DNA of 64,000 nt from Desulfovibrio sp. GTDB taxonomy: Bacteria > Desulfobacterota > Desulfovibrionia > Desulfovibrionales > Desulfovibrionaceae. The position numbers were made by a program, and so were the translations under genes. A model generated the notes under the pieces. The model was not told the DNA's origin. It saw only the letters and a list, made by a program, of their open reading frames with translations, and ran no database searches. Within the stretch, counting starts at the first letter, position 1, and every line of letters starts with the position of its first letter. The stretch is taken from positions 10,363-74,362 of the forward strand of contig NZ_DASQOG010000210.1 of NCBI RefSeq assembly GCF_035644575.1, written 5' to 3'. This document shows positions 532 to 21,191 of this stretch, in pieces.

Positions 532-1476
532 TTACTTCTCTAACAATTCTGCATAGCCCATTCCAGCTAGACCATAATGGTTGCCGCAGTAAAACAAATA
601 AACTTTTCCATTACATTCAATTCTCTCAGCAAATGCAATCATTTCAGAATCCCATCCTGAAGGCGAAACATCTATTCCAATCAATTCATCTTTTCTCTCA
701 AATGAATGTCCGTCGGTGCTCTCACCGTATCCAAGGCGATATCCATTTGAAAGAGAACGAATCGAATAGATTGTTTTAAACAAGCCATCTTCTTGCCATA
801 CGGTGCATTTAGCAATTCCATGCTCATCGTCATTTTTGAAGGAAACAGAAGTACTCACCGGCACATTTGCCCAATTCACAGGGGAAAAAGACTCGCAATA
901 TTTCATGTCGTATAGAGGCATCAATTTAGATTCTTTTTTTACCCAGCCAGAACCAAAGTCAGCTGTATACCACATTTTATATTTAGAATTATCTTTCAAA
1001 ACAAAAGGAACACAACGGGTGCCACATTCACCTGAAATCCGATCTAACATTGGAACAGAATTTGTGATCTTTGTAAAAGTGTTCCCATTGTCATGACTTG
1101 CAGCCACCCCAGCAAAAATCAAATATGGCACTTTTACACATAATTGATATCCAGAATAGTAAAGATATAAAATATCACCATCTCTAAGCACAGAAGCCGT
1201 GACAACTCCATTATCGTCAAAACAACCAATATTCCCGATATCTACAAGGGGCTTTTGACTGTAAGACAAAATTTCAGAAGGATTATTTGCACTAACATCA
1301 ACATAACCGATCCTGCCAATATTCATATCATCACAAAATGTTACATAAACCCTAATAACATCTTTGCTTATCTGATATGGCAAAGGAACCATTGTATTCT
1401 TTTTGTACCAACTCAAATCAAAACTATTGGCATCACAAATTTTACCCTTCTTTAACCATTTCACAGGAGCCTCCAT
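532..1476 (-). CDS. Glycoside hydrolase-like beta-propeller protein (glycan-locus associated)
   Basis: 314-aa ORF with repeated blade motifs (YLYYSG, KMWYT, IYSIR...GYGES.DG, YLFYCGN). Confidence 0.55.
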   Translation of the reverse strand: MEAPVKWLKKGKICDANSFDLSWYKKNTMVPLPYQISKDVIRVYVTFCDDMNIGRIGYVDVSANNPSEILSYSQKPLVDIGNIGCFDDNGVVTASVLRDGDILYLYYSGYQLCVKVPYLIFAGVAASHDNGNTFTKITNSVPMLDRISGECGTRCVPFVLKDNSKYKMWYTADFGSGWVKKESKLMPLYDMKYCESFSPVNWANVPVSTSVSFKNDDEHGIAKCTVWQEDGLFKTIYSIRSLSNGYRLGYGESTDGHSFERKDELIGIDVSPSGWDSEMIAFAERIECNGKVYLFYCGNHYGLAGMGYAELLEK

Positions 1477-2944: not shown

Positions 2945-2973
2945 ACTTCCTCCAACTCTCCTAATATATTAAA

Positions 2974-4014
2974 TTATTTACTTGTAAAAATCGCAATTTT
3001 AAACCAAAAAAATTTTAAAAAGCGTTTTATTGCAAAAATTTTTTTAGCCGAAATAAATCTGGTAATCTCAACAACATAATCATGTTTATTTACTAAGATA
3101 CATAAATAATATTTGTCGATTCGCTTCCTAAAATAGACTAAAATGTAACTACACATTGATAAAATTTTTTTATTCTTTGTAACTGCAGCCTCTGCAAGTT
3201 CTATCATTTTCTCATCCTTACTCTGAGCAACAAGAGCTATTTCGTACTTGAGTGTATCTATAAAATACTTATCCATAATACCATGTTTCTTTATAGTGTT
3301 TGTAGCATGAGACCTATAGTTATATAAGCATTCATCTAAATACTTTAACTTTCCAAGTTTAGCTATTTGCATAACGAGATACCAATCCTCAAGAGGTGCC
3401 TCTTTTTTGAAGCCACCAATTTCAGTCAATGCTGATGTGCGAATCATAAAACCATTGGGAATATAATTTCCCAAAAGCAAAGAAGCATATGTGCCAAAAG
3501 CATTGGTCTTAAAATCAGCATGTTGATTGATCTTTTGCAGGAACTGACAAAATGTCGCATAGGATCGAGGCGTGCCTAAAGGCACAACCTGACCACACGA
3601 GTTCCATGCCACCCTACATGAACCTTCATCAACAAAGTAATTATCACCAACAACAAAATTATAATCTGGATTATTAGCTAAAAAGCTAGCAAATATTCTT
3701 ACAATAGATGGTTCAAGAAAATCATCGGATGCACAAAATTGAACATAATCACCGCGAACCTGTGAAAGAAGACTGTTTAACGTTGCAGTAATTCCAGAAT
3801 TTTTTTGCCCACAGACAACAAATCTATTAAATCTATGTCCGCTGTTCGCTTTAACTTTGTTGATTATTTGAAGTGTATTATCAATTGATCCATCATCAAT
3901 AACGATTAATTCTATATTCTGATATTCTTGGCGAAAAACAGAGCGTAGTGTTTCTTCAACGAATAATTCATGATTATGGGCTGGGATGATTACAGAAACT
4001 GATGGTAGTGACAT
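2974..4014 (-). CDS. Glycosyltransferase family 2
   Basis: VSVIIPAHN, VIDDGSID, ASDD (DXD) and EDW motifs. Confidence 0.9.
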   Translation of the reverse strand: MSLPSVSVIIPAHNHELFVEETLRSVFRQEYQNIELIVIDDGSIDNTLQIINKVKANSGHRFNRFVVCGQKNSGITATLNSLLSQVRGDYVQFCASDDFLEPSIVRIFASFLANNPDYNFVVGDNYFVDEGSCRVAWNSCGQVVPLGTPRSYATFCQFLQKINQHADFKTNAFGTYASLLLGNYIPNGFMIRTSALTEIGGFKKEAPLEDWYLVMQIAKLGKLKYLDECLYNYRSHATNTIKKHGIMDKYFIDTLKYEIALVAQSKDEKMIELAEAAVTKNKKILSMCSYILVYFRKRIDKYYLCILVNKHDYVVEITRFISAKKIFAIKRFLKFFWFKIAIFTSK

Positions 4015-4032
4015 CTCGCACCCGTGCCATAC

Positions 4033-4671
4033 TTAATTATTTAGCATGAAATAATGGTAAACACTATTGGCACAACGCCATGGTAAATGTTTTTGAAGTC
4101 GATCTAACGCAATAAAACCTGTATCTACAGCGATACTTCGAATTCCCAGGCTTTTTGCTGCGTCTATATCTTCACCTGTATCCCCGAAAAAAAAATCATC
4201 ACATGAAAAATCTACAGTATCCCGTATGATGCTATCTTTAGATCTTAATTGGTTGGTCACTAATACCAAAGAAAAATACTTCCGCCAATCTAACCAATTC
4301 AGCTGGGCGATAAGACGATCAGAAAACTGTCGAGCCGAGACTAAAATCAAATCGCTGTTACCGCTTAGCAACTCAAGCACATCCTTGATACCCTCAAACG
4401 GCGTGTCTAATTTAAGCAGCTCAAATTCTTCTATTTCATCAAGCCACCTATTCTTGAACATCTGCACTTCAGTGCTTGTAAATTTCATAAAGAATTGCAA
4501 TAACATTGATTGATTCATAAAATTTCTTTTATAATACCAATACGTATTAAAATCAGGAATTAAATTTTCATCGCCAGGCCTCATAGCCAAAACAATTTTT
4601 CGAAATAGAGTATATACTCTTTTCTTTGAATCGACCAAAGTTCCATCAAAATCAAAAAAGTATTTTTGCAC
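4033..4671 (-). CDS. HAD-family hydrolase
   Basis: FDFDGTLVDS motif I and FGDTGEDIDAA motif IV. Confidence 0.85.
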   Translation of the reverse strand: MQKYFFDFDGTLVDSKKRVYTLFRKIVLAMRPGDENLIPDFNTYWYYKRNFMNQSMLLQFFMKFTSTEVQMFKNRWLDEIEEFELLKLDTPFEGIKDVLELLSGNSDLILVSARQFSDRLIAQLNWLDWRKYFSLVLVTNQLRSKDSIIRDTVDFSCDDFFFGDTGEDIDAAKSLGIRSIAVDTGFIALDRLQKHLPWRCANSVYHYFMLNN

Positions 4672-4750
4672 ATTTATAACCGGCTTTGCTTCTTAAGCGC
4701 GATTGCTCATTTGGGGAATATGATACCACAGTATTGCATAAAAATACTTA

Positions 4751-5794
4751 TCATAGGCGGTAAACGTCATGCAAAAAAACACGCCCACCAAAACCTTCTT
4801 TTTGATGCAACAGACCAAAGTTAATGCATGAACCGTCTTGCTCTGTTGAAATTCCGAAACTAAACCATCTTTTTTGATTTGCCTGTGCTTCTATAACGCT
4901 GCTCATCAACAAGTCGAGAGCGCCAAGTTCTCGCCCCTCTTGGCTAGCACAAATGTACTGGGAGTGGGCGGCAGTCTTTGTCAAAAAAAGCAAAATTCCA
5001 GCAAGGATTATTCCGTCTTTTTGTGCTGTGACAAGCTTTATGCGTTCAGGAAATCGCTCATGCAACAGAGCTAACTCTGCGGCGGAATGCTTTGGCGTTG
5101 TATTATGCCTACGCAACGTCTTACTAAGCACTTGTATATATTGATTCCAATCTTCACTATCCAAAATTTCAATGCGATTTTTTTGGGCCTTGTTGATGCC
5201 ACGCTTTCTCATAGTTGTCATTGGCAACGGTGCACAATAACAAATACCTGTAGACATATGCCTCTCAATTATTTTTGCCCCTATCATAGATAGAGCATAG
5301 CTTTGTACCTCACATGGCACTTCGTGATAAGGGTAAGGAGTGGGCTTACAAACTAATTCTTGGAATTGATTCTTCTTTAAGTATTTTTTTAGCGCAACAT
5401 AAAAAGCTAAGATATCGGACGCATACACTTTGGGTCCATGAACGAGCCCGCCAAAGGTTAGCCCTTGATGCGAATACAGTGTGTTATCTCGCTCGTTGGC
5501 AGGAAACACACCAAGCAAAGCCCCATTACGCATCATAAGTAATGAGTGATCGCAAAACCTATCCGAATGATAGTCCATGAAATTACGATAAAAAAGAAGA
5601 TGCTCATTTACCGCATTAGCAACACAGGCATCCCATTGTTCATGGTCTCCCTTTGAATAACGAATGACCTCGACAGGAGCTACACCTGCCTGCTCAAGTT
5701 GCTCACTAAGCCCAGTTTGACACAATTCTGCAAAGGGCAGGACAGTGGGTGACAATTTATTTCCCCCAATAATTGCGAATTTGCATACACACAA
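4751..5794 (-). CDS. GNAT/FemAB-like acyltransferase; true start probably downstream of 5794
   Basis: [13 protein letters not shown]...SHQGLTFGG...FGISTE...KEGFGGR. This family is commonly found next to fdt genes. Confidence 0.7.
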
Positions 5795-7295
5795 ATTCTA
5801 TTTCTGCCTTTGTGTGCATTGCATCAAGGGGCAAGCTCAGCACTTCTGCTGCCTGCACCTCTGCCTCGGGAAATTTTAGCTCGCTATACTCCTTCGCATA
5901 ACACTTCTGCCGGTGCAATGCGGACGGATAGTGAATATTGGTGCCAATACCCTTTTGGGACAAATAGTTGGCCAACTCATCGCGCCTGCCGTTTTTTACA
6001 CGTACGGCAAATACATGCCAAACGGGTACTGTATCTGGCAAAGTACTGGGCAGCTCTATTTCGCCAACATCGCTTAATAAATCGAAATAAATTTTTGCTA
6101 GTTGGCGCCTTTTTTCATTCCATTCATCAAGATGAGAAAGCTTTTCGCTGAGCATGGCAGCCTGAATTTCGTCTAGCCGCGAATTGCCACCGAGCATTTC
6201 GTGATCATACTTAACTGTTGAACCGTAGTTAGCTAGTTTACTAATTTTATTTGCAAGATCTGTATCATTTGTTGTTACGCAACCACCGTCTCCGAATCCG
6301 CCTAGATTCTTTGTGGGGTAAAAACTAAAGGCTGCAGCAGTTCCAATGCTTCCGCATTTATTCCCCTTATATAATGCACCGTGTGCCTGACAGGCATCTT
6401 CAATTACCTTCAGGCCAAATTCTTTTGCAACGTTGCTAATGGCATCCATATTTGCGGGCAGTCCATACAGGTGCGTGAGCAAGATGGCCTTTGTTGCAGG
6501 CGTAACTGCGTCCTTAAGTTTACTGGCATCAATGTTGCCGCCAGGCCCACAGTCTACAAACACTGGCCTAGCTTTTACCCGGCTGACAGCCAAAGGAGTG
6601 GCTATAAACCCCGCTGCGCAAAGAAGAACCTCATCCCCTTGCCCAATGCCAAGGCCTTCCAAAATCATGACCAGAGCCTCGAGTCCATTGCCTACGGTTA
6701 TGGCATGCCGAACGCCGCAATATTCGGCAAAAGACTTTTCAAATTTCTTTTTTTCGCAGCCATTTATAAAAGAATTTGATCTAATTACCCTTAAAGCTGC
6801 GTGCTCTATTTCTTTTCCCACACTGTCATGATAGCGAGAAAAATCTATATATGGCACAGAATCTACTTCATCCAATGAGGCCAGCCATGATTGAAATTCG
6901 TCGTAGTCTCGAATGTAATCCGATTCATTATAGTTGGTCGATGCAAGAACCATAATGACGGTATCATCACTGAAATGCATCATTTCGCGCCAGTAGCCAG
7001 CAGGGATAAGCACAGCTTCATTAGGCGACGCCAATTCAAAACGGAATTTTCCGCCTGGGCCTTCAAGTATAAGAGTTACTGATCCATGAACAACCACAAA
7101 GCATTGCTGCAATTTCTTGTGTGCATGAAACCCCCGATGTGTTGAGGCTTCAGCACCGTAGATATAATAAACGCGCCTTATTGTGAACGGCAGATCCGTG
7201 CTGGATTCAATTACGCTCAGCGCGCCATTAGTGCCATCTTTTACAGTCTTGATAGATATTTTTTTTGGGTGCGCAGTCTGCATATTTCGCCTCAT
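5757..7295 (-). CDS. fdtA-fdtB: Fused sugar 3,4-ketoisomerase (FdtA/QdtA cupin) plus DegT/DnrJ aminotransferase (FdtB/QdtB)
   Basis: N-terminus has RRVYYIY...[11 protein letters not shown]...YIRDYDEF. C-terminus has [25 protein letters not shown] (PLP lysine) and [10 protein letters not shown]. One continuous 512-aa ORF. Confidence 0.85.
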
Positions 7296-8479: not shown

Positions 8480-8888
8480 TGACCCTCCCCCCGAAAAGTA
8501 AGCCAGCAAAAAAAATTAGTGTTTTTGACATCGGAGCACAAGAATGAAGAGTAGCAGATTCACCGAAGAACAGATTATTGGGATCTTGCGGCAAACCGAG
8601 GCTGGCGTTCGCGTTGTCGATCTATGTCGTCAGAATGGCATTTCAGATGCGACCTTTTACAAATGGAGCCGCGAGTTCGGTAGGATGAACATCTCTGACG
8701 CCACGCGGTTGCACCAGTTGGAGGAAAGAAACGCCCGCCTGAAAAGGCTTGTAGAAGAAAGCCTTTCTCTGCACACCCGCAAGCGCGTGAAGCGTCCAAG
8801 CCATGCCCATATTGTCCAGACTGGCCCTGCTGGCCGGGATGCAACCCATTGGGAACAAATAACTTACAAGTGGTATGGGGCAAGGTCA
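8480..8888 (+). mobile_element. IS3-family internally deleted miniature copy (409 bp, both ends retained)
   Basis: Left end TGACCCTCCCCCCGAAAAGT at 8480. orfA (MKSSRFTEEQIIGIL) is fused to a mid-orfB fragment. Right end ...GGGGCAAGGTCA at 8888. Confidence 0.85.
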
Positions 8889-9601
8889 GCCGCCCCCCGC
8901 TTCAGTTGACTTTTTCTCAAGTGCGGCCAAACGGCGGTTTACTGATTCAAGGCTGTGACGCAACCAGATCGACCGTATCCGGATGGGGAAACAAATATGC
9001 CTTGCTTGCGGAGCTCGTTACTGGCCCGTACTTGCCCATATGCAGGAAAATCAAGAGCAAAGGCAGTAACAGCTAGCTCCGTAGACTCTTCAACACGATT
9101 CTTCCACCACGCGCAGCCTGATACCGATAAAAAGTACCGCGTGAAAACCCTATAATCTTGTAGGCGTCCGAAATATTGCCAAATTCCGCAGCGAGATTGA
9201 GAAGCCCGGTCTTGTGCTTGATGACGTTTTGATTGAAACTTTCTACGGGAATTCTCCGTGGGCTTGTGCCCGGTTTGATGGTGCGTTTACATTTCCATCA
9301 AAACGGGGATTCCCCTTTCCTTCAGGGACCTGTCAGATCAAGTATAAACTAGCTCAAATGAGGCAGAGCAACAACTACGCTTGCCAGCTTTTAGGATGGC
9401 ACTTTGCAAAACCATCTGCCTTAAGAATGTCTTGAGAAAATCGCGTCCACAGCTTATATTTGAAATTATGTCGCCGCATCTTAACGCCTCTATGTAAGAG
9501 GAACACAACGATCCCTGCATTCTTGCGGGGCGTTGAATGCCCCTCATCAAGGCTGGCAGGCCGATACCAACCGCCAACTCTTGTGGAAGGATCACCTTCG
9601 C

Positions 9602-10357
9602 ATGAACAATCAATTTGAAGAATTTCTTCAGCATGGCTACATTTTAAATAATTTTTATCATTTTTCCAACAAAATCAAAGCGTGGCAATACTATCTTCCT
9701 TTTACAAAAGCGGCTAATTACATTGATCCAAACACACGAGCCCTTGATTGGGGATGTGGCAACGGTCACTTCTCATCTTTTCTTCTGCATAATAAGCAAA
9801 TGACTACTGCCTTTGGCTTTGGCGAAACATCTGCAATTCCCTTGCTCACAGACAACAAACTTTTCAACTTTGTTGCAGCCAATACCCATGAGCCTACAAA
9901 GCTACCTTTTGCAGACCAAACTTTTGATATTGTTTTCAGCATGGGGGTATTGGAACATGTTCATGAATCTGGTGGCGATCAGCTCTCGTCACTCAAAGAG
10001 ATACATCGCATACTTAAGCCGCATGGTTACTTCCTTTGCTTCCATTTTCCCTACAGTGGTAGTCTTGTAGAAATCATTCACAATGCAATCATGCCTTTCA
10101 AGCGCAAGGCCTATGTTCACACCAGGCGGTTCTCTCAGGAAGATGTTTTACGTCTTGCAAGTAATTCTTGCTTAGAAGTAAAAGAATGGGGGACATATAA
10201 TATATTGCCGAGAAATTTTACAGAGATCCTGCCTGTGAGCGTAACAAATAATCATTTTTTTGTTTCTGTCTTTAATGCAGTAGATACATTAATTTCGCAG
10301 CTTTTCCCATTTTGGTGCACACAAAGCTATTTCATAGCCCAAAAAATCAGTTCATAG
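9602..10357 (+). CDS. Class I SAM-dependent methyltransferase
   Basis: ALDWGCGNG, LPFADQTFDIVFSMGVLEHV and ILKPHG motifs. Start placed at ATG 9602. Confidence 0.85.
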   Translation: MNNQFEEFLQHGYILNNFYHFSNKIKAWQYYLPFTKAANYIDPNTRALDWGCGNGHFSSFLLHNKQMTTAFGFGETSAIPLLTDNKLFNFVAANTHEPTKLPFADQTFDIVFSMGVLEHVHESGGDQLSSLKEIHRILKPHGYFLCFHFPYSGSLVEIIHNAIMPFKRKAYVHTRRFSQEDVLRLASNSCLEVKEWGTYNILPRNFTEILPVSVTNNHFFVSVFNAVDTLISQLFPFWCTQSYFIAQKISS

Positions 10358-10481
10358 CAAACTTTATGGCTTAATCGCAGAATTAAATTGGGCATATGTA
10401 ATGCATAACACGTGCATAGACATACTGATCAATAATTGGGTTCACTTCTTCGGACCGGCCAACGTCAAAACTAAGATAGAC

Positions 10482-11655
10482 TGACCTTACCCCACTGCGT
10501 ATGCTACTTGTAAGTCACTGTTTTCCAATGGGTTACAGGTTATATTCTTTTCACGGAACTCTTCCGGAGTTAGCCAACCCAAGGAACTGTGCGGTCGCCG
10601 TTGGTGTATCCTGCCGCCAGGCTTCGACTGTTCTGCGGGCATCGTGCAGGGACAGAAACACGTTCTGATTTAAGCACTCATCCCGGAATTTTCCGTTAAA
10701 GCTTTCAATGTGCCCATTATCTGTGGGCTTCCCCGGACGAGTGAACTCTATCTGTACTCCATGCTCAAAAGCCCATGCGTCCAAGGCCTTACCGCTAAAT
10801 TCTGGGCCGTTATCAACCATGGAACGTTACGGCAACTGACTTTGAAGGCGTAGTCTTTCAAGAACGCGTACATCTCGAACTCCAGGCAACGACATATCCA
10901 CCTCGAGCGCGGGGCTTGAACGATCCCACAGATCAGCAATTGTCAAAATCCGGATGCGTCGCCCCCCATAAGGTCATCGCTTACAAAATCCATCGCCTGT
11001 TCATCTGGGCCATCAGGGTCAGCCTACGCAATACGGACAAAGCTGGGACGCTTCACGCGTTATGGGTACGCAACGAAAGTTTCTCTTTCTGGTAAATCCT
11101 TTCTGTCCGCTTGTGGTTCTGCACCAGCCCTTCCCGGCACCATAACTCATGCAGGCGCGGAGAACCGAAACTTCGTCGATCTTCTGCCCGTAAAAGAAGA
11201 TCACGGCCTTCAGATGGTGGCCGTCTGGCTGAACAGCGATTAAACTGATCACTCGGCAAGCCCGCCGCGCTGAGTAGCCAGACGCAGCCTGAAAGTGTTG
11301 CACGGCTTCCCTGTTGATTGCGGGCTTCAAAAGTTTTTGAGATCACGTCCTTCAGGACGACGATATCAAGCGCTTGTCCGCTTACAAGTCTTTTCAGCCG
11401 GGCGTTCTCTTCCTCCAACTGGCGCAACCGCATGGTGCCAGAGATGTTCACCCTATCGAACTTGTGGTTCCATTTGTAAAAGGTCGCATCCGAAATGCCA
11501 TTCTGACGGCATAGATCGACAACGCGAACGCCAGCCTCGGTTTGCCGCAATATCCCAATAACCTGTTCTTCGGTGAATCTACTTCGTTTCATCCTTGTGC
11601 TCCTATGTCAGGAACACTAATTTTTTTGCTGGCTTACTTTTCGGGGTGAGGGTCA
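10482..11655 (-). mobile_element. IS3-family element, near full length (1174 bp), frameshifted transposase
   Basis: Left end TGACCCTCACCCCGAAAAGT at 11655 and right end at 10482. orfA MKRSRFTEEQ; orfB DDE fragments VDNGPEF and NGHIESFNGKFRDECLN, broken across frames. Confidence 0.9.
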
Positions 11656-11656
11656 T

Positions 11657-14600
11657 TTACCCTACAGAGTTAAACAATAACGCAAGCCGTGCAGCGTTTG
11701 TTGGGTGTTGTGAATTGCGAGCAGCAAAACACCAAAATCCGGTTTGATGATGCGTCAGGGAATTGCGAACGCTTTCCATCGGAATAAATCCGAACTCTGT
11801 GATTTCTCTGTCCCCTGAGGATATGTCGGCGATTTCCATAAAAGACCGGGCATCCTGCTCCAGTCGGCAGACAATAAGCAATACCCGATTTGCCGCCGAC
11901 CATTCGATACCAAAACTCGCCGCAAGTGGCGTGACTAGAGACAAATCCAACTGAACCCCAAATTCCTCAAAAATTCCCCTCAAAAGACAGGTCTGCACGC
12001 CCCGGCCGCCATCAAGGTCTTCCTTCCGCATCTGCTCTTCAAAAGATATGCTCCATGCACCAGGATAGTACGCACTACCCAACGAGCGGCGAGCCTGTAG
12101 AAGCTGATTATCTTTTGTAACAAGCAAGGCGTGGACACAACCTATTGATGGCAAGGGAGATTCACTCTCAAACGATTCATAAAGTGACATTATCGCTTCG
12201 AGATGGGCAGCAAAATCAGGGGATTCCTTCCAGTCGTGACTTGGCGGACGCATGATTGGCGCTATGCCATGCTCCCTGCATATTCCATCAAAAAAGGCTT
12301 GCCGCTCATGCAGTGCTAAGTGGAGGCGGCGCGGCGTGGCCCAGGTAGAGCCACTGCACAGGATGGTGTCAACCTGACCTGCCACAAATGACAGCTTTTG
12401 TTCAAGTTCCGCTCCAACATCACGAGTCCGTTCGGCAGCTGTTAACCATTCGGGCAAGGAAGCAGCGGGCTGATCAAGAATCAGCTCCGGCAAAACCTTA
12501 TACCGCCGTAACTCCACATACTCGGAGGTAACTATCGAGCGGTCGACACCGCTCCCTTCAACAATCTTGCCAAGTTCCACAAGGCGCTGCTGCCCTGCAT
12601 TGCCAATACGGGTTGCTAGCGCTCGTCTTAAAGCCAATTGAAAACACTTTGCCCGTTGACTATCTGTAGAAACAGCATTCATCTGCCGCTCAAGCGCTGC
12701 GATCAGAGCCGTTTCACTAACGTCGTCCGTCTCAAAAGTAAGGGCATACAGGAGCGCGGCACGGGCACGACTGTTGTCCAGTATTCCCAAAATTTCATAT
12801 GCTTTTTGATGAATACGCCCATGTTGATGCCAAAGTGATCTGGCCACCAGCATCGTGACAAGCGGCAGGGACTGAAGCTGCCGCTGCATACCAACAATCG
12901 CAAGATAGCGCTCGACAATGGTCCAATCCGAGGCTCGTCCAAGAGAAAACCTGTCACAAAGAGCCAGCCCTTCTTCCAGTTCCTCAACAGTAAACGCTCC
13001 ATCCGTTGAGGGAGCAATACGCTGCTGCATATCAATTCCCAAAAGACGCTCGACCTCACCGATGGCATGACGCACTGTACGTAACAATACATGAGACGGT
13101 GGATGCAGCTCTTCAACCGGTTTCAACAGTTTTTGCAAGGCAACATATGCTCGTTGCTCAAAATCCCTGTCCTCAAGAGCTGCTTCAACAATGGCAGAGG
13201 ACAGATATTGCGCGATTCCAGGATCATCTTTTACAAGCTGCGCGTCATCTGCAAAGAATTCAAGAGCATTCTCAACTTCCTGCGGACGGTTGATTTTAGG
13301 AAGTGCCTCAATCAACCTGGCGCGCAAACTCACAGAGGAGATATAGCGCCGCAATGCACTAAGTATACAACCATCCTCGTCATCCATAGAAAACGATGCA
13401 GCACCACCAAACATGGCAGCGACAGAACTTAAAGCCAGCTGTGTGAGCTTGGGCGGGTGCAGACTGCTCAATTTCTCGCCATTGCTGGCGGGCAACCTGT
13501 TCCCCAGATACTCTCCATTGAGCACATTACGGATTTGACCAAGAAATACCTTCAATCGTGCCGTGATAACATATCCAGCGTTCCAGCTTTCCGAATGGCG
13601 CGTCATCTTATTATCTACCACAAATAGAAATTGTTCAAAATAACGATCTATGGTTGATACAGCATTTCTGTCATGCGCCATTTGCATCACAGTTTCAAAC
13701 AGCACCCTGCCAAAACCTTTAACAAGCAACATAAGAGTTGAATTTAACACATCTACATTGCTACACATTTCACTTGTCACTGCAATATTATGACTATCAA
13801 TAATATCATGACGTAGCCTGATCAAACCATCCTCTTCAACAACATAATTGGCATTATCAATAAGGACATTCAACAAATCAGAGTGCCCGTCTATTTTTTC
13901 TCTGGGCACATAAAAACATCCGCGCTCTATCTGGCACCTAGACAGATCTTTCATTATTCTTTCATTTGCTTCACCCTTCAGTCTGCGTTCAACATTTGTC
14001 AAACCTTCATTCGGTTCCAGGCAGTATTTACGCATTCTGTCGAGCAAAGCCGTTTCGGTATCAGGAAGGGAGGAGGTTTTGCCCTGTTCTTGCGCAGCAA
14101 GATACAGGCATATGTCTAGGAATACCGGGTTACGCAGAAAAGGCCGAGATACCAGATCACTCCCTTTAATATCAAGGACATCTGCCACAATTTTGCTTTT
14201 AAGATCCGTGAGTTCTATAATTCTGGCATCAGCCGGTGTTTCACTCGTGTCGGTGGGGGCAAATGCAGAACGAGCTGCCGACCAGGCACCAGGACGGGAC
14301 GTAAGGACAAGTTTGCAGGTGCCAAGAAGCCGCCGTAGTTTTTGCGCAGTTTCCTTGGGGTCGTCGGCATGTTCCAAACTGTCCGTGACAAAACAGATGA
14401 TATCCTTGAACCAATGCAGGCCCTCCTCTGCCAATGATATAACCTTGTCTTTTGATACCCAGTTCAACCCCAGACGCCTTTTGAGCGCCGAATCGATATC
14501 AAGAATATCCTCATCCGTAAGTAAAATTGGGAAAAAACACTTTGAATCTGGCAGATCAAGTGCTTCAACAAGAGCTCGCGCCACCGCGGTCGTTTTCCCT

Positions 14601-15331
14601 GTTCCGCCCGGCCCCACAAAGGCAACTGATCTCAATTCCGGTTTCGAAACAAGATCGCTGACCGCCTTGCTTATTTCGTCCCTGTCAAACCGCTGTTTAG
14701 GAACGAGCTGGCGCCCAACAATACGCTTAGCCCAAGCAAGGGTGCGCTCGCGCTCTTTTACGAGGCGTCTGATAAAATAGGCGCGAACGCTCTTCACGAT
14801 GGAGGCACAACAGCTATCAAGGACAGTTTCAATATATTCCCTGTCCTTGTCGTAGCTTGTGATCGATTTGAATATTTCCGGCTGATGAAGTTGGGTGGCG
14901 ATGGTTTCAGGATCGCGCCCACCTGAATGACCAGTATTCCGTATAACAAGACGACGCTCTAGCTCCTTCCACCCCTCCTCGCCAAAACGCAGCAGGACTA
15001 TCGGCACGTCGGTAATGCCTCTCTGGGGATAGAGGGCATCAAATATTTCCTCTACCACAATATCCGGATCACGGGGCTGACTGGCGGATGCTGTGGCGAT
15101 GACAACAACTGTTGGCCCAAGATTGGGTGCCACATCGCTGTCAACCGCCTGATAGAGTTGCTCCTTCCACATTTCTCGCCAGGGGTAACCAGGCCGGTGG
15201 CAATCTTCATCCAGAAACACCTTGAGATTGAAGGAAGTTTCCAGTCGAGTTTTTACGGCCTGTGCAAGGCCCGTATCAATACGCCTGTAGCATATCAGCA
15301 CATGACACTTTTCTTGTTCGTCAAATGGCAT
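11657..15331 (-). CDS. TIR domain - STAND/NACHT-like P-loop NTPase - helical repeats - NUDIX-like domain protein
   Basis: N-terminal VLICYRRID...KVFLD...VVVIAT...IVVEEIFDAL (TIR with candidate catalytic Glu). Walker A GPGGTGKT; Walker B ICFVTDSLE. C-terminal ALLVTKDNQLL..RRS....YPGAWSISFEEQ...RGIFEEFG (divergent Nudix box). RBS GAGGGG. Confidence 0.8.
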   Translation of the reverse strand: MPFDEQEKCHVLICYRRIDTGLAQAVKTRLETSFNLKVFLDEDCHRPGYPWREMWKEQLYQAVDSDVAPNLGPTVVVIATASASQPRDPDIVVEEIFDALYPQRGITDVPIVLLRFGEEGWKELERRLVIRNTGHSGGRDPETIATQLHQPEIFKSITSYDKDREYIETVLDSCCASIVKSVRAYFIRRLVKERERTLAWAKRIVGRQLVPKQRFDRDEISKAVSDLVSKPELRSVAFVGPGGTGKTTAVARALVEALDLPDSKCFFPILLTDEDILDIDSALKRRLGLNWVSKDKVISLAEEGLHWFKDIICFVTDSLEHADDPKETAQKLRRLLGTCKLVLTSRPGAWSAARSAFAPTDTSETPADARIIELTDLKSKIVADVLDIKGSDLVSRPFLRNPVFLDICLYLAAQEQGKTSSLPDTETALLDRMRKYCLEPNEGLTNVERRLKGEANERIMKDLSRCQIERGCFYVPREKIDGHSDLLNVLIDNANYVVEEDGLIRLRHDIIDSHNIAVTSEMCSNVDVLNSTLMLLVKGFGRVLFETVMQMAHDRNAVSTIDRYFEQFLFVVDNKMTRHSESWNAGYVITARLKVFLGQIRNVLNGEYLGNRLPASNGEKLSSLHPPKLTQLALSSVAAMFGGAASFSMDDEDGCILSALRRYISSVSLRARLIEALPKINRPQEVENALEFFADDAQLVKDDPGIAQYLSSAIVEAALEDRDFEQRAYVALQKLLKPVEELHPPSHVLLRTVRHAIGEVERLLGIDMQQRIAPSTDGAFTVEELEEGLALCDRFSLGRASDWTIVERYLAIVGMQRQLQSLPLVTMLVARSLWHQHGRIHQKAYEILGILDNSRARAALLYALTFETDDVSETALIAALERQMNAVSTDSQRAKCFQLALRRALATRIGNAGQQRLVELGKIVEGSGVDRSIVTSEYVELRRYKVLPELILDQPAASLPEWLTAAERTRDVGAELEQKLSFVAGQVDTILCSGSTWATPRRLHLALHERQAFFDGICREHGIAPIMRPPSHDWKESPDFAAHLEAIMSLYESFESESPLPSIGCVHALLVTKDNQLLQARRSLGSAYYPGAWSISFEEQMRKEDLDGGRGVQTCLLRGIFEEFGVQLDLSLVTPLAASFGIEWSAANRVLLIVCRLEQDARSFMEIADISSGDREITEFGFIPMESVRNSLTHHQTGFWCFAARNSQHPTNAARLALLFNSVG

Positions 15332-15356: not shown

Positions 15357-18065
15357 CTATTGCGCTTTTTCGATGTTGTAATGATAAATTGGCTTATTAT
15401 TGGGCGGACTTTCCGTGACCAGACAAACGGGGATACCCAGGGATTGCGCTTTCATCACGGTGTCGCCGGTACCGCCTAGCTGATCGCACCCCACGCCATC
15501 CCACAAGGCAACAAGTATAGTTGCCTGATCAAGCAGCATGCGGGCCTGCGCCTGATGGCCAGTTTCATCTTCTGCGGGCTGGGCCAGTACGAGATTCCCA
15601 GCATGCTGCTGCAGATCTGTCTGGTCAAAAATTTCCGCACTGCTGTTGACCTTCGGATCCTCAGTGGCAAAATCTGTTCCTAGAGGTCCTGCGCCAAAAG
15701 GAAAAACCAGCTGAGGTTTAGGCAAACCAAGTCCGTTCCAGCAAGCAACCGCCATTCTGTCTGCACCGGGCGCATAACCGACTACCAAGCGACAGCAGTT
15801 ATTTTCGAACACTGCTCGAATAAACACAGCCTGTATTTCACGCTTTAGGTCAGTAATGCTGCCCAGACGAGTCAGGTCCCGATGCCCAGCAAAGGCGACG
15901 GCTGGCCCTTCACCTCTCTTCCAGCTCCAGGTTGTTGAGATTTCCACCAACATTTTACGGTCAAAATCGAACAAGGCCTTGACCATCCGCAACAAAGTCG
16001 GCTTGGGAGGTTCCCAAAAGACAATACGTAGCCGACAAAGATTCTTTGTTCTGTCAAAGATTTGCCGCAATTGAGTCTTGATTACTGAAGCGGTGGCATC
16101 CTTAATATTCAGAAACTTATTGCCAAATCCTACAATAACCTCGGTGGTGGACTCCGTTACGGGGAGGGACTCAATAATTGTCGGGCCATCGCCCTGCTCC
16201 CCGGCTGCAAGCCATATGTATGCGCACTTGTACGCACCTGCCGAGGGGACAGCGTCTGGGAGTTGCGGTTCTTTTCCACCAGCGATGAGAGCCCGCAAAA
16301 AAATGGAATCGTAGTTTTGAATGTGTTCGTCGAGATTATTCCACTCTGTAATACAGGGATGGATCCGTCTCTGATTGTCTCTGAGCGATGCATCATACCG
16401 ACCAGCCGAAAACCAACCGTCAAGTGCCCGGTCTGTCATCCAGCGGTCATGCTCGACAATGGCTGCCTGAATAACGCGCTGTTCCAAAGATTGTGCGTTA
16501 TTCATGAATGCCTCAGGGTCAACGACCGGCAGAAGTTTACTCTTACGCCGCCACTGTACCCCCAAATCCTCAAGTTTTTGCTCCGCGTGACGGATCAGCC
16601 GACGGTTGGAAACGCGATAAGTTTCGTCAAAGGTGTTCCACTCCCCTTCGTTAAAGGAGAATTTTGGGTCATCAGGGTGCATAATCTGGCCAGCAATACG
16701 GTATCTCTTATGCATAGTACGCGCAAACAAATCGGGATCGTCTTCAAACGCCGTGCCGTAGGCGACGATCCTTTCAAGTGAACCAAAGGACCGGATCATG
16801 CCGACAGGATCAAAACCGGGGTCTGCCTCATTACCCAGGTTGCCGTTCCAAATACGCACAAAAATAGGGGCTGCATCGACCCTTCGCAGTTGCATGGCTG
16901 TTTCTAACGCTAGTGCCGCCTTAACGTTGACGGTATCGTCGCTAGTGGTGATAACATAGGCAGTGACGGGTGTTTTTTGCACTTCGGCCATGCAGGGATC
17001 AGACGCATAATCAGCACATTTTATATCCATGGTATGAAAATAAACTTGCGGTGCGGAATTTTCGGGCAGAGCCCCTGTGTTGCCTGCATCCAACAACAAT
17101 GCAGGGGCAAGACGGATAAATCGACTGCGAATTTCATCGCCCTTGCAATCGCAGATGTCTATCACCGGGGGTTTAAGGCCAACACGCCATGCAGTCAGCA
17201 AAAATTCTACTGCGATGGCTTCCCCCTGAGCACCATAACCAAACAACACAAGATGGGCGTTTTCCTGTTTTGCATCCAGCGCCGCGCGATCAAAGCGTGC
17301 CGTCTGGCAAAGCTCCTCGGCAACCATCTGCGGCAATGCAAAGGCAGATATTTCTTTCCATGTCCCCGTGCATGAGGTGCTTTCGTCCGATATCTCACGC
17401 ACGATCTCAGGGTCGCGGAGCAAAACTCGGATATCAGGCCCCGCCCCAGTCTTGGCCATATGTGTTCTGACATGCGCCTGCACAGCACGGGCGGCATCCA
17501 GACTCTCCATATCATTAGAAAACGCAATAAACACGCGGTGGGCATGACTCAGGCCGATCTTCACCATCAATTCATCAGAAGTGCCATTACCTTCAATTAA
17601 AAGGATATGGTCTGTACGCGCCTGATTGGCCCGTTGTGCATCTACCGTGCGGTCAACCGCTGTGACAGCATGCGCATATCTACGCGCAACAGCCTGGCCG
17701 ACTGGCCCGTAGCCAAAAACAATTACGCGCTTTGAAGAGTAAAAAAACCTTTGCCAACAAAGATGAACGAACTGCCGCAAAGGATGGCTCAAGGACCACA
17801 GCACGGCAGAGGCTCCAAAGATAGGGGCGGCAAAACGGGTTACTTGAAGCAGCCAGTGAACCCGACATTTTGATTCAAGTTCAAAATTGAGAACAAACAT
17901 CTGAAGCGACCGGTATCCAGCATCAAACAACAGATCGGCCAAGCTCGACCATGTGTCGGGTAAGCTTTCCAACCTATTCTCGGACATAAGAAAGCCCACC
18001 ATGCCTGCAAACCAGATAGTGACAAAAAAGATGGTTATAGCTATCGCCCGTGATTTTCTGGTCAT
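15357..18065 (-). CDS. 2TM/pore channel-like - two RCK(TrkA-N) - RyR repeat pair - SLOG domain protein (about 902 aa from ATG 18065)
   Basis: Two hydrophobic helices flank YRSLQMFVL. Rossmann motifs VIVFGYGPVG and LVLFGYGAQG. RyR motifs ARTMHKRY and EHDRW..GW...NQRRIHPCITEW. SLOG motifs AFAGHR, GYAPGAD and LVALWDG..GGT. RBS GGGGA upstream of 18065. Confidence 0.8.
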   Translation of the reverse strand: MTRKSRAIAITIFFVTIWFAGMVGFLMSENRLESLPDTWSSLADLLFDAGYRSLQMFVLNFELESKCRVHWLLQVTRFAAPIFGASAVLWSLSHPLRQFVHLCWQRFFYSSKRVIVFGYGPVGQAVARRYAHAVTAVDRTVDAQRANQARTDHILLIEGNGTSDELMVKIGLSHAHRVFIAFSNDMESLDAARAVQAHVRTHMAKTGAGPDIRVLLRDPEIVREISDESTSCTGTWKEISAFALPQMVAEELCQTARFDRAALDAKQENAHLVLFGYGAQGEAIAVEFLLTAWRVGLKPPVIDICDCKGDEIRSRFIRLAPALLLDAGNTGALPENSAPQVYFHTMDIKCADYASDPCMAEVQKTPVTAYVITTSDDTVNVKAALALETAMQLRRVDAAPIFVRIWNGNLGNEADPGFDPVGMIRSFGSLERIVAYGTAFEDDPDLFARTMHKRYRIAGQIMHPDDPKFSFNEGEWNTFDETYRVSNRRLIRHAEQKLEDLGVQWRRKSKLLPVVDPEAFMNNAQSLEQRVIQAAIVEHDRWMTDRALDGWFSAGRYDASLRDNQRRIHPCITEWNNLDEHIQNYDSIFLRALIAGGKEPQLPDAVPSAGAYKCAYIWLAAGEQGDGPTIIESLPVTESTTEVIVGFGNKFLNIKDATASVIKTQLRQIFDRTKNLCRLRIVFWEPPKPTLLRMVKALFDFDRKMLVEISTTWSWKRGEGPAVAFAGHRDLTRLGSITDLKREIQAVFIRAVFENNCCRLVVGYAPGADRMAVACWNGLGLPKPQLVFPFGAGPLGTDFATEDPKVNSSAEIFDQTDLQQHAGNLVLAQPAEDETGHQAQARMLLDQATILVALWDGVGCDQLGGTGDTVMKAQSLGIPVCLVTESPPNNKPIYHYNIEKAQ

Positions 18066-18776: not shown

Positions 18777-19648
18777 TGACCCTCACCCCGAAACAGGGAA
18801 GCCGTGCATCACATTCAGGCTGCGCTTGGTTACTCAGAGCGGCGGGATTGCCGAGTGATTCAGTTTAATCGCTGTTCAGCCAGACGGGCACCATCTGAAG
18901 ACCGAGATCTTCTTTTACGGACTTGAGTGCTGGAACTGGCAAATGACCGGCGGCCTTTCGGTTCTCCGCGATTGCATGAATTATTACGCCGAAAATATCT
19001 GGTGCAGAACCACAAGCCGACAGAAAGGATTTACCAGAAAGAAAAACTTTCGTTGCGTACCCATAAACGCGTGAAGAGTCCCAGCTTTGCCCGTATTGCT
19101 TAGGCTGGCCCTGATGGCCCAGATGAACAGGCGATGGATTTTGTAAGCGATGACCTTATGGGTGGGCGACGCATCCGAATTTTGACAATTGCCGATCTAT
19201 AGGATGGCTCAAGTCTGACTCACGAAGTGGATATGTCGTTGCCTGGAGTTCAAGTTGTACGCGCTCTTGAAAGACTACGCCTTCAAAGTCAGTTGCCGTA
19301 GCGTACCAAGGTTGATAACGGCCCAGAATTGAGCGGTAACGCCATGAATACATGGGCTTTTAAGCACGGCATGCAGATAAAGCGCACTCGTCCGGGGAAG
19401 CCCACAGATAATGGGCACATTGAAAGCTTTAATGGAAAATTCCGGGATGAGTACTTAAAACAGAACGTATTTCTGTCCCTGCACAATGCCCGCAGAACAG
19501 TCGAAGCTTGGCGGCAGGATTATAGCCAGCGGCGGCCGCACTGCTCCTTGGGCTGGCTGACACCGGAAGGATTTCGCGAAAAGAATATAACCTGCAACCC
19601 ATTGGAAACCAGTGACTTACAAGTAGCATACGCAGTGGGGTAAGGTCA
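18777..19648 (+). mobile_element. IS3-family element lacking orfA (872 bp, both ends retained)
   Basis: Left end TGACCCTCACCCCGAAA is joined directly to the orfB start region (cagggaagccgtgc). DDE fragment NGHIESFNGKFRDE. Right end GGGGTAAGGTCA at 19648. Confidence 0.9.
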
Positions 19649-19686: not shown

Positions 19687-20202
19687 TCAATTATTGTGTT
19701 CGAGAATAAATTTGGAACAAATTTCAGCAGATTCTTGCACTGTTAGCCTATGCGTATTTACTTTGAGAGAGTAATTAGTGGGGACTTCGTAGCGATCATC
19801 AATGCCTGTATAATTCTTCAACTCACCTCGAGATACTTTTTTGTAGTTCCCTTTTGGATCCCTTCTTTGGCATTCCCTCAAAGGACATTCGACATAAATA
19901 ATTTCAAGTGAATCACCCAAAATGTGTTGTAACAGACGTCGCCCTTTATCATAAGGTGCAATCAACGCGAGCAATACCGTGATTCCTTGCTGGAGTGCAA
20001 TTTTTGCGACTTCTCCGCAACGCCGAATATTCTCTAACCTGTCAGCTTCAGAAAAACCCAAATCTTTATTCAAAGACGAACGTATTTCATCGCCGTCAAG
20101 AACTAAAATGGGGGGAAAATGGCTATTTTTTTTAAAAATCTCCAGTGCCAATGTAGTCTTTCCAGAGCCAGAAAGGCCAGTTAGCAGATATGCTTTAGCC
20201 AT
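19687..20202 (-). CDS. cysC: Adenylyl-sulfate kinase
   Basis: TGLSGSGKTT, LDGDEIR..LNKDLGFSEADRLENIRR, RDPKG.Y and YTGIDDRYEVP motifs. Confidence 0.92.
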   Translation of the reverse strand: MAKAYLLTGLSGSGKTTLALEIFKKNSHFPPILVLDGDEIRSSLNKDLGFSEADRLENIRRCGEVAKIALQQGITVLLALIAPYDKGRRLLQHILGDSLEIIYVECPLRECQRRDPKGNYKKVSRGELKNYTGIDDRYEVPTNYSLKVNTHRLTVQESAEICSKFILEHNN

Positions 20203-20228
20203 TTACTATTCCTGATTAAGTAATACTG

Positions 20229-21191
20229 TTAGTTTGAACCAACAAGTTCCGCACTGCAAGGGAGCGGAAAGTCACCTTCCAGTGGCATGTCCGGCAGATT
20301 CAATATCTGTTGGGCTACAGCGGGCATAATCGTGTCCGGCCATGGAATAATATCGTAAATTTCTCCAACTGCTGCTACTGGATATGTAGAAATATTTCCG
20401 CTGTCAGCAAGATGAAAAAGAACCATTCCTCCCCCACCGTCCTGCTGGCTGTGGCGGCGTGAGCTGCCTCCCAATATCCAGCCGTCTCTCACCCGCAAGC
20501 AACCTCTCAAAAAATGAGATGCTGTGACGTGCCAGCTTTCTGCTAGTTGCAAAACTCCGTTTTCTGCCTCACTCAATCTATAGAACATCCCTGTTGACGA
20601 TGAGCAGCAGTAGATATCCCCATTGTGCTGTGCAAGAGAATGGGGGCAATTCAGCCCAGAGCCTACAACTTTAGTGATGGTCTGCCTGTTGTGACGGCGC
20701 ATGTAAAAAAGCACACCCAGACCTTCACTTTGCCAAGTAGGACAAGTCTTTTTCCATATATTAAAGGGCTGATGAGAAAATGCAGAAGCCAACAGTCCGT
20801 CTTTCCACTCAATCATATCGTTAAGATGGATAGCATCCTGCACACGCGAACTCCAGCACTCCAACGGATCATAACTCATGATCAGCCTATCATCTGCATA
20901 GATGAGAACGCGTGAGTTGCCTGTATCTGCGACTCCAATTCCATTTTGACCAAAAGATTTTATGCTGTGTGCATAATTATCGTGAGGCCCAGGTAAACTA
21001 ACCTCACGCAAGCCATTTTCCCCTATAGATTTTATGCTGTTGTCTGTAGCAATCCAGAGCCCATCCTGAGCGGCGTGGATCCCACAAACACGCATCCGAT
21101 TGCCCGGGCAATACCAGAAAGGAGTTTTATTCTCGAGATCAAACCCTACAAGTGATACGCTGCTATTAACGCATCCTAGCAATATTTTCAT
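20229..21191 (-). CDS. Beta-propeller hypothetical protein (DUF4915/TIGR03032-like)
   Basis: 320 aa with HLND and NCPHSL motifs resembling the family found in glycosylation islands. By-eye match only. Confidence 0.45.
   Translation of the reverse strand: MKILLGCVNSSVSLVGFDLENKTPFWYCPGNRMRVCGIHAAQDGLWIATDNSIKSIGENGLREVSLPGPHDNYAHSIKSFGQNGIGVADTGNSRVLIYADDRLIMSYDPLECWSSRVQDAIHLNDMIEWKDGLLASAFSHQPFNIWKKTCPTWQSEGLGVLFYMRRHNRQTITKVVGSGLNCPHSLAQHNGDIYCCSSSTGMFYRLSEAENGVLQLAESWHVTASHFLRGCLRVRDGWILGGSSRRHSQQDGGGGMVLFHLADSGNISTYPVAAVGEIYDIIPWPDTIMPAVAQQILNLPDMPLEGDFPLPCSAELVGSN

Follow-up and report, generated by a model that had tools for sequence, protein, structure and literature searches.

The window is a 64,000-nucleotide stretch of a Desulfovibrio sp. 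assembly (GCF_035644575.1, contig NZ_DASQOG010000210.1, positions 10,363 to 74,362 of the forward strand), and positions below are counted from its first nucleotide. Its minus strand carries two adjacent genes that are the subject of this report (Table 1). The upstream gene encodes a 902-amino-acid (aa) channel-like protein that begins with a predicted two-transmembrane (2TM) part and continues through two RCK-type Rossmann modules, a ryanodine receptor (RyR) module, an unclassified α/β domain, and a C-terminal SLOG domain. The downstream gene encodes its partner, a 1224-aa protein with a TIR domain, a STAND-type P-loop NTPase core, a long helical region, and a Nudix domain. An earlier sequence-only reading had described the channel-like protein by itself, and the analysis reported here follows it into its operon, its homologs, and the genes that stand beside them.

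The channel-like gene opens with an ATG at 18065 that has GGGGGA just before it and closes with a TAG at 15357–15359. ATG 18065 is the likely start because the 85%-identical homolog P0002 begins with the same MTRKSRA; a longer frame from a TTG at 18290 was set aside on the ribosome-binding site and the homolog N termini. Among 5.8 billion clustered proteins, 24 homologs were found, with 30–85% identity and E values down to 0, and 15357–18065 is therefore not a chance open reading frame (ORF). The named homologs are all from Alphaproteobacteria (Rhizobium, Thioclava, Pseudooceanicola, and Hyphomicrobiales) and are annotated only as "hypothetical" or "NAD-binding protein." Their alignment has 48 invariant columns distributed over the full length, and the AlphaFold2 model built on it has a mean predicted local distance difference test (pLDDT) score of 83 and a predicted TM-score of 0.82. 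NCBIfam and PADLOC scans gave no meaningful family for either gene of the pair. Among public sequencing runs, the stretch is present in soil, biofilm, lake, and wastewater metagenomes, and no RNA runs turned up.

Architecture of the channel-like protein

The AlphaFold2 model places the first three helices at aa 3–28, 39–58, and 71–92, and the mean Kyte-Doolittle hydropathy is 2.26 for aa 7–27, 0.52 for aa 39–58, and 1.22 for aa 71–92. Two predicted membrane helices, TM1 and TM2, flank an amphipathic, re-entrant-type helix that carries a conserved Y-R-S-L-Q-M-F, and a basic amphipathic helix follows TM2 in the model. The basic N terminus and the cytoplasmic continuation fit a topology of TM1, re-entrant helix, and TM2. 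Residues G21, G24, and F25 of TM1 and Y51 and Q55 of the pore-helix-like helix are invariant in alignment A7, F57 is nearly so, and L73, R77, and A80 of TM2 are invariant in the homolog alignment. The conserved polar residues of the re-entrant helix and TM2 (Y51, Q55, Q74, and R77) suggest that the membrane part is more than an anchor. The protein contains no TVGYG-like K+ filter; YRSLQMFVLNF runs directly into ELESKCRVH, and the loop at the filter position is variable among homologs, with insertions of up to ~35 aa. The K+ filter is absent and the protein is therefore not to be classed as a K+ channel. In the clade of P0005, P0006, P0009, and P0010, a Lys/Glu/Pro/Ala-rich insertion of 25–35 residues (alignment A1, columns about 128–160) sits exactly between the re-entrant helix and TM2. 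The protein has no Pfam Ion_trans_2 match. Its likeness to K+ channel pores is at the fold level, where helix order and hydropathy fit and the Foldseek alignments with GsuK and MthK, both full-length, extend far enough to take in the membrane part. Homology of this part would be supported by the helix order and these alignments, and the protein may form a pore.

Of the two Rossmann modules, Pfam TrkA_N matches the first at aa 114–197 with E = 9e-12 and 45.8 bits against a cut-off of 23.8. The second is delimited at aa 269–427 by its secondary structure in the model. GxGxxG is retained in both modules, and the acidic residue after β2 is mostly retained in both, a pattern shared with TrkA and GsuK, which bind nucleotides. 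With the whole model as query, the nearest Foldseek neighbors are the TrkA gating ring, GsuK, CASTOR/DMI1, MthK, and Slo (E from 4e-8 to 1e-4, and about 1e-7 against TrkA and GsuK), and the alignments to tandem-RCK proteins span about 380–540 columns. The sequence-only reading had proposed a TM1, a pore-like helix, and a TM2 lacking TVGYG, followed by two Rossmann/RCK modules on an MthK/GsuK-like scaffold. The helices and both modules are borne out by the model, the alignment, and these searches, and the scaffold assignment holds at the level of the fold.

Two conserved helical units follow the RCK modules, and these had been taken for a tandem RyR pair, an arrangement seen in Repeat12 and Repeat34 of eukaryotic RyR. 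Unit 2 is an RyR domain: its family profile matches an RyR1 repeat in the PDB with E = 4e-14 and the bacterial "putative ryanodine receptor" 3nrt with E = 3e-6, and a precomputed PF02026 match exists on several homologs. As a single sequence, it scores E = 1e-3 and 19.5 bits with Pfam RyR (PF02026), below the 27.4-bit cut-off. The profile of unit 1 has no match to RyR or to anything else in the PDB, and its hhalign comparison with unit 2 is not significant (E = 0.06, probability 0.9%); the designation as a pair was overstated. Unit 1 is nevertheless highly conserved and accompanies unit 2 in every relative that carries unit 2. The domain at aa 606–715 was missing from the sequence-only inventory. 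It has no Pfam or PDB match and is retained in homologs that lack the SLOG domain.

The same two-unit RyR module is found in another architecture in Verrucomicrobial proteins (L018:5563–8103 and similar proteins of 863–871 aa in L019, L094, L100, L102, and L103). In the L018 protein, the module is accompanied by a SLOG-like region and by a cyclase domain of the adenylate/guanylate type, and there is no membrane or RCK part. SLOG-profile matches are short and weak in the L094 and L100-type proteins, and in L103 a TIR gene adjoins the RyR-module protein.

The SLOG domain, predicted earlier at about 15400–15905, occupies aa 720–885. Modeled alone it has a pLDDT of 90, and its best Foldseek match is YpsA (2nx2; E = 2e-7, TM-score 0.60), followed by DprA, ShosA, TM1055/LOG, the MHR1/2 region of TRPM2, and the SLOG domain of ThsA, which is matched as its 3' cyclic ADP-ribose (3'cADPR)-bound structure with E = 7e-3. 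The domain is classified by fold comparison only: its profile finds no PDB match by sequence, and the window protein itself has no match to the SLOG family models of Pfam. Across 16 members, weak Pfam matches are confined to SLOG-clan families or the related Nuc_deoxyrib_tr, all below curated cut-offs (DNA_processg_A in six members, best 2e-3; YAcAr in three; cpYpsA, YpsA, and Nuc_deoxyrib_tr in one each). The motif GHRD follows strand 1, and the conserved loops GHRD, GYAPGAD, GH.AQ, D, and GGT resemble the YpsA pattern. The GHRD, GAD, and GGT loops would be consistent with a domain that binds a nucleotide or an ADP-ribose-derived ligand.

Partner gene, mobile setting, and related loci

The partner gene lies 25 nucleotides downstream of the channel-like gene on the same strand and has its own ribosome-binding site, GAGGGG, within the gap. 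No terminator-like site was found in or beside the gap, and the nearest lies within the partner gene. This layout indicates that the two genes are very probably cotranscribed. The partner TIR domain is recognized by Pfam TIR_2 (E = 4e-4) and by a TIR hidden Markov model (HMM) built from neighboring genes (E = 1e-20), and it has a Glu at the catalytic position (E94/E95). The STAND core has a Walker A motif, GPGGTGKT, at 240–247 and a Walker B region around D317 that are invariant in three homologs, with weak nSTAND5, NACHT, and NB-ARC matches in Pfam, and the long helical region separates it from the Nudix domain. The Nudix box reads G1091...E1098 E1099...R1118-G-I-x-E1122-E1123-F-G-V. Compared with the consensus GX5EX7REUXEEXGU, it has G1091-x6-E-E, a lengthened loop, and RG in place of RE; the Pfam NUDIX match has E = 0.013 and 15.9 bits against a cut-off of 21.1, and there is a weak PDB match to IPP isomerase, a Nudix fold. 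The database holds only two further clusters of the partner protein. One is represented by a 90%-identical homolog that again stands beside a channel-like gene, in a metagenomic locus that is 85–90% identical to the window pair (L025). All three partner proteins keep the TIR catalytic-position Glu, the Walker motifs, and the Nudix R-G-I-x-E-E-F-G-V down to 37% identity.

Two IS3-family insertion sequence (IS) remnants of ~0.85 kb each, inverted and with arms 84–95% complementary, bracket the gene pair like a composite transposon. The pair has ~50% G+C as against 58–62% in parts of the window farther along, such as 22–32 kb. From these sequence features, the pair looks like mobile cargo.

Table 1. 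Features of the gene pair and its flanks; coordinates are window positions, and gene coordinates include the stop codon.
Feature	Position	Strand	Basis
Gene for the 902-aa 2TM/tandem-RCK/RyR/unclassified-domain/SLOG protein	15357..18065	(-)	ORF list, start context, 24 homologs, AlphaFold2
TM1, aa 7-27, ends in conserved G..GF (predicted)	17985..18047	(-)	Model helix 3-28, hydropathy, alignment
Amphipathic pore-helix-like helix, aa 39-58 (...YRSLQMFV)	17892..17951	(-)	Model helix, hydropathy, alignment
TM2, aa 71-92 (predicted)	17790..17855	(-)	Model helix 71-92, hydropathy, alignment
RCK/TrkA_N Rossmann module 1, aa 110-243, GYGPVG	17337..17738	(-)	Pfam TrkA_N, Foldseek TrkA/GsuK
Rossmann module 2, aa 269-427, GYGAQG	16785..17261	(-)	Model secondary structure, GxGxxG, Foldseek
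Conserved helical unit 1, aa 446-505 (H..Y ... W..L.ET.R.SNRRL..H..KLEDLG)	16551..16730	(-)	Invariant residues; RyR-like by eye only
RyR domain (unit 2), aa 523-598	16272..16499	(-)	Family profile against PDB; Pfam RyR
Unclassified alpha/beta domain, aa 606-715	15921..16250	(-)	AlphaFold2 model
SLOG domain, YpsA-like, aa 720-885; motifs GHRD, GYAPGAD, GH.AQ, D, GGT	15411..15908	(-)	AlphaFold2, Foldseek, weak Pfam
Partner gene, 1224-aa TIR/STAND P-loop NTPase/helical region/Nudix	11657..15331	(-)	ORF list, Pfam, alignment; same pair in L025
Partner TIR domain, aa 10-120	14972..15304	(-)	Pfam TIR_2, locally built TIR HMM, alignment
Partner STAND-type NTPase core, aa 218-360	14252..14680	(-)	Weak Pfam matches, motifs
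Partner Nudix domain, aa about 1062-1190	11762..12148	(-)	Pfam NUDIX, box conservation, weak PDB match
IS3-family remnant, left arm of inverted pair	10482..11315	.	Inverted repeats I1, I3-I7; transposase fragments
IS3-family remnant, right arm of inverted pair	18792..19648	.	Inverted repeats; ORF 19329-19643 = transposase C-terminal fragment

A low-G+C run (35–45%) at 532–7295 on the minus strand probably encodes polysaccharide or O-antigen-type biosynthesis; its genes, named from their translated sequences only, include a glycosyltransferase, an HAD-like protein, and a fused cupin/aminotransferase. It is followed by the IS fragments and a methyltransferase-like gene at 9533–10357; a third related IS3 fragment lies at 8509–8841. 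Two proteins are encoded just outside the right IS arm, at 19687–21191 on the minus strand: one is an adenylyl-sulfate kinase (TIGR00455, E = 6e-48), the other a functionally uncharacterized protein of 320 aa.

Related loci were collected from genomes, metagenomes, and plasmids, and their called genes were scanned with the family profile, a SLOG profile, the locally built TIR HMM, and Pfam. Neighbors were counted in 17 nonredundant SLOG-bearing loci with informative flanks, and a DUF4062 locus was grouped with the TIR loci by assumption only. A large STAND NTPase, mostly nSTAND1 with TPR, WD40, or Ank repeats, is adjacent in 10 of the 17 loci, a TIR or DUF4062 gene is adjacent in 10, and 14 have one or both kinds of neighbor. 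The TIR/DUF4062 gene overlaps the homolog by 4 bp in L001 and L002 and lies within 80 bp of it in L028 and L036. The partners in these loci are TIR- or DUF4062-nSTAND1-TPR/WD40 proteins, with nSTAND1 matches of E = 1e-62 to 1e-74. The pairing of a SLOG-bearing homolog with a TIR/STAND gene recurs across Alphaproteobacteria, and homologs also stand beside type IV secretion system, phage, and IS genes. The TIR protein that overlaps the homolog start by 4 bp in L002 (L002:9573–10004; 143 aa) has by eye no Glu at the catalytic position and may therefore be inactive or miscalled.

Other recurrent neighbors are prok_STING proteins (L004, L011, and L013) and patatins (L009 and L006/8/12). The former are 367–380-aa proteins with a C-terminal prokaryotic STING domain, encoded directly upstream of SLOG-bearing homologs (L004:6558–7700, L011:6483–7625, and L013:6594–7697). 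The domain at their N terminus falls into no known class, though it weakly matches Nuc_deoxyrib_tr, and no CD-NTase was seen beside them.

Where the SLOG domain is missing from a homolog, a gene for SLOG often stands close by. In the Hyphomicrobiales loci L006, L008, and L012 (about 10300–13280), a SLOG-less homolog has near it a patatin and then a 569-aa SLOG-DUF4231/SLATT-like protein. In L016 (2243–4075), a homolog ends after the middle domain and is followed by a separate SLOG-SLATT_3 gene, and stand-alone SLOG genes lie near SLOG-less homologs at L023:2769–3398, on a Sinorhizobium plasmid, and at L056:3625–4386. The plasmid collection contained SLOG-less Sinorhizobium homologs only. The occurrence of separate SLOG genes beside SLOG-less homologs argues that SLOG and scaffold work together.

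The scaffold itself is far more widespread than the SLOG-bearing form. In an exhaustive profile search, relatives numbered 9494 at E ≤ 1e-3 and 1013 at E ≤ 1e-30; most are 580–640 aa long and made up of the 2TM part, the two RCK modules, and the RyR module. Those that extend into the SLOG domain form only about 13 clusters at 50% identity, and their distribution is patchy. In a large clade of 610–640-aa relatives (L049–L055, L059, L062, L066, L067, L073, L081, L082, L084, and L086, where complete), the gene is convergent with a PhoX alkaline phosphatase gene, the stop codons overlapping, and SelO and a DUF3298 protein follow. This conserved PhoX/SelO neighborhood suggests a non-defense role for the clade. 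Other SLOG-less relatives adjoin TIR-WD40 or nSTAND1-WD40 genes. It follows that the 2TM-RCK-RyR scaffold is an old one put to various uses; the branch associated with conflict is the one that carries SLOG.

Proposed mechanism and rival explanations

Because the membrane protein shares an operon with a TIR-containing sensor ATPase, it is probably a membrane-damaging effector of a Thoeris-like anti-phage system. In its full form, the reading preferred here, to which we give about an even chance, is that of a horizontally mobile, two-gene anti-phage module with the channel-like protein as its membrane effector: the TIR domain would make an NAD-derived signal, the SLOG domain would read it, and a filterless pore would be gated in response. 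The helical region of the STAND protein would detect a phage cue, the protein would oligomerize, and its TIR domain would turn NAD+ into an ADP-ribose-derived signal. Binding of this signal to the SLOG domain of the membrane protein would be relayed through the RyR, middle-domain, and RCK assembly, which would act as a gating ring as in GsuK and MthK. A tetrameric, TM2-lined pore would then open and, having no selectivity filter, would dissipate ion gradients, and the depolarization would halt growth or kill the cell before the phage cycle is completed. The Nudix domain would most likely hydrolyze the signal or ADP-ribose and so set a threshold or end signaling, a role that would mirror that of NUDT9-H in early-branching TRPM2 channels. 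A nucleotide-gated effector fits both the TIR-STAND-Nudix operon and the recurrent TIR/STAND pairing, a context that the sequence-only reading had not used.

Several observations weigh against this reading. The hydrophobicity of TM2 is moderate (mean Kyte-Doolittle 1.22), and the TM profile has no significant match to any solved channel in the PDB; an hhalign comparison of the membrane profile with an approximate MthK sequence gave E = 0.033, aligned the G..GF alone, and is not used for homology. No PADLOC model matches the system, and the partner's TIR and Nudix domains match Pfam below the curated cut-offs. The sole distant partner homolog, P0292 (L110:8001–11744; 37% identical), stands alone without a channel neighbor, among housekeeping genes and with two small stand-alone Nudix genes ~5 kb upstream; a protein of the TIR-STAND-Nudix kind can therefore work by itself, in the manner of Avs. 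This supports the main rival explanation, in which the partner would be a self-contained, Avs-like NAD+ depleter and the channel-like protein would act independently or would sense declining NAD(H) or ATP at its RCK sites instead of a dedicated signal at SLOG. The nucleotide-binding features that both Rossmann modules share with TrkA and GsuK are consistent with such a division of labor, the TIR gene is convergent and not co-oriented in some loci (L004 and L011), and defense genes share islands without interacting. Separate functions are nonetheless unlikely in our estimate: the spacing is tight, both in the window and in the 4-bp overlaps of L001, L002, and L023, the association recurs with different STAND and TIR families, and the SLOG genes found beside SLOG-less homologs are hard to explain if SLOG has no functional role.

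There are two further explanations. The protein could serve housekeeping ion homeostasis as a ligand-regulated K+/cation pathway or regulator, its SLOG domain monitoring an ordinary nucleotide and the TIR/STAND genes being coincidental island cargo. The size of the scaffold family speaks for this, as do the many shorter 2TM-RCK-RyR relatives in conserved synteny with PhoX and SelO, which is not defense-like, and the three of the 17 SLOG-bearing loci (L014, L015, and L031) whose neighbors are housekeeping genes only, namely transporter or metabolic genes. Against it stand the missing selectivity filter with its variable replacement loop, the rarity and patchiness of the SLOG-bearing subfamily, the IS elements that flank the pair, and the TIR/STAND neighbors in the other 14 loci, and we regard it as quite improbable. 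Alternatively, the invariant His, Arg, and Asp residues of the SLOG domain (H9, R10, D50, H118, and D137 in domain numbering) could mean catalysis and not sensing. SLOG would then be a LOG/YpsA-like enzyme for N-glycosidic cleavage or other processing of ADP-ribose derivatives. The protein would process nucleotides or generate a signal at the membrane, to which its 2TM part would anchor it instead of forming a pore. LOG enzymes are among the structural neighbors, SLOG families include enzymes (PMC9503650), and pore homology is not established from sequence. The best structural matches are, however, the non-LOG proteins YpsA and DprA, the LOG motif PGGxGTxxE is reduced to GGT with the conserved Glu missing, the conserved polar residues Y51, Q55, Q74, and R77 point beyond an anchor, and the fold-level match covers full-length GsuK and MthK. 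An enzymatic SLOG domain on an anchor is judged very improbable.

The effector reading can also be extended to a bacterial channel gated by a cyclic ADP-ribose (cADPR)- or ADP-ribose-type signal, with RyR and SLOG jointly sensing or transducing it. The eukaryotic cADPR-RyR and ADP-ribose-TRPM2 links would then descend from a common antecedent in prokaryotic immune operons of the present kind, in which TIR, Nudix, SLOG, RyR, and a channel scaffold occur together. This extension is a long shot. Two observations are compatible with it: RyR and SLOG-like modules recur together in other architectures, for example with guanylate cyclase in Verrucomicrobia, and SLOG-less, RyR-bearing relatives also have TIR neighbors.

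Comparison with known systems

The channel-like protein resembles the RCK channels of the GsuK/MthK/TrkA type in having a 2TM part followed by cytoplasmic TrkA_N Rossmann modules. GsuK and TrkA are closest, with the modules in tandem on one chain, GxGxxG kept, and the best fold matches. It differs from GsuK and MthK in that a variable loop replaces TVGYG, its membrane part does not significantly resemble theirs in sequence, Pfam detects no TrkA_C lobes, and ~470 extra C-terminal residues carry the RyR module, the unclassified domain, and SLOG.

According to a preprint survey of Thoeris (bioRxiv 10.64898/2025.12.03.692087), the SLOG domain of type I systems senses TIR-made 3'cADPR, and the effectors validated for types II, V, VI, VII, and X include membrane proteins and an ion channel. 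The window pair shares with type I Thoeris (ThsB TIR and ThsA SIR2-SLOG) a TIR gene beside a SLOG-bearing effector, and the ThsA SLOG is among its structural neighbors. Here, however, a channel-like membrane protein would take the place of SIR2 as the output, the TIR belongs to a STAND-Nudix fusion protein and is not a small ThsB, and YpsA (E = 2e-7) and DprA match the SLOG domain better than ThsA does (E = 7e-3). Type X Thoeris (Yirmiya et al. 2025, 10.64898/2025.12.03.692087) is similar in combining, as described in the same preprint, a TIR gene with a predicted "ion channel" effector, ThsK. The likely ThsK of Vibrio sp. JCM 19052 (L024:3369–3995; 208 aa), picked by its position between two ThsB-type TIR genes only, in a locus traced from the preprint's TIR, is weakly Ion_trans_2-like, has a TLTYGGF filter-like motif, and has no RCK, RyR, or SLOG domain, unlike the window protein. 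Identity with type X is ruled out to the extent that this small, unrelated protein is the channel there. The architecture is absent from the effector annotations of Table S2 and from the term-searched portion of Table S1 of the preprint (10.64898/2025.12.03.692087), and by these tables the window effector lies outside the described Thoeris effector families (ThsA and ThsC to ThsL). The survey removed TIRs in Avs/STAND proteins before the effector search (10.64898/2025.12.03.692087), and the TIR-STAND configuration would be missing from it because of this exclusion.

The partner protein is built like the Avs/STAND antiviral NTPases that carry an N-terminal TIR domain, in which a STAND core with a P-loop comes next and a long helical region extends toward the C terminus. 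It differs in ending in a Nudix domain and in being paired with a SLOG-bearing membrane protein, and this pairing suggests that its TIR may be a signal generator instead of, or besides, an NAD+ depleter. The candidate effectors described as SLOG-SLATT, "SLOG and 4TM," and "SLOG Patatin" likewise link a SLOG sensor, by fusion or as a neighbor, to a membrane or lipase effector in nucleotide-signaling conflict systems, and the membrane module of the SLOG-SLATT and 4TM candidates is SLATT or 4TM as against 2TM-RCK-RyR in the window protein. The architecture was not found described in the literature searched, and a mention in the SLOG classification of Burroughs et al. 2015 is possible.

Among eukaryotic proteins, the ADP-ribose-gated TRPM2, which joins MHR1/2 to a cation channel and NUDT9-H, has the same combination of SLOG, channel, and Nudix, and its MHR1/2 is a structural neighbor of the window SLOG. 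TRPM2 has a 6TM TRP-type pore in place of 2TM-RCK, an N-terminal SLOG, and its Nudix on the same chain, whereas here the Nudix is on the partner. The resemblance is an analogy and not whole-protein homology. If the proposed mechanism is correct, the pair would be a prokaryotic counterpart to TRPM2 and would provide the first testable functional context for bacterial RyR domains. TIR immune signaling would gain an effector class in which a filterless pore, gated by an RCK ring, is read through SLOG, and a new sender class in which a STAND/Avs-type NTPase uses TIR as a signal generator and has a built-in Nudix. TIR signaling, the SLOG sensor, and the membrane effector are elements known from other systems, and the effector scaffold and the STAND-Nudix sender would be new.

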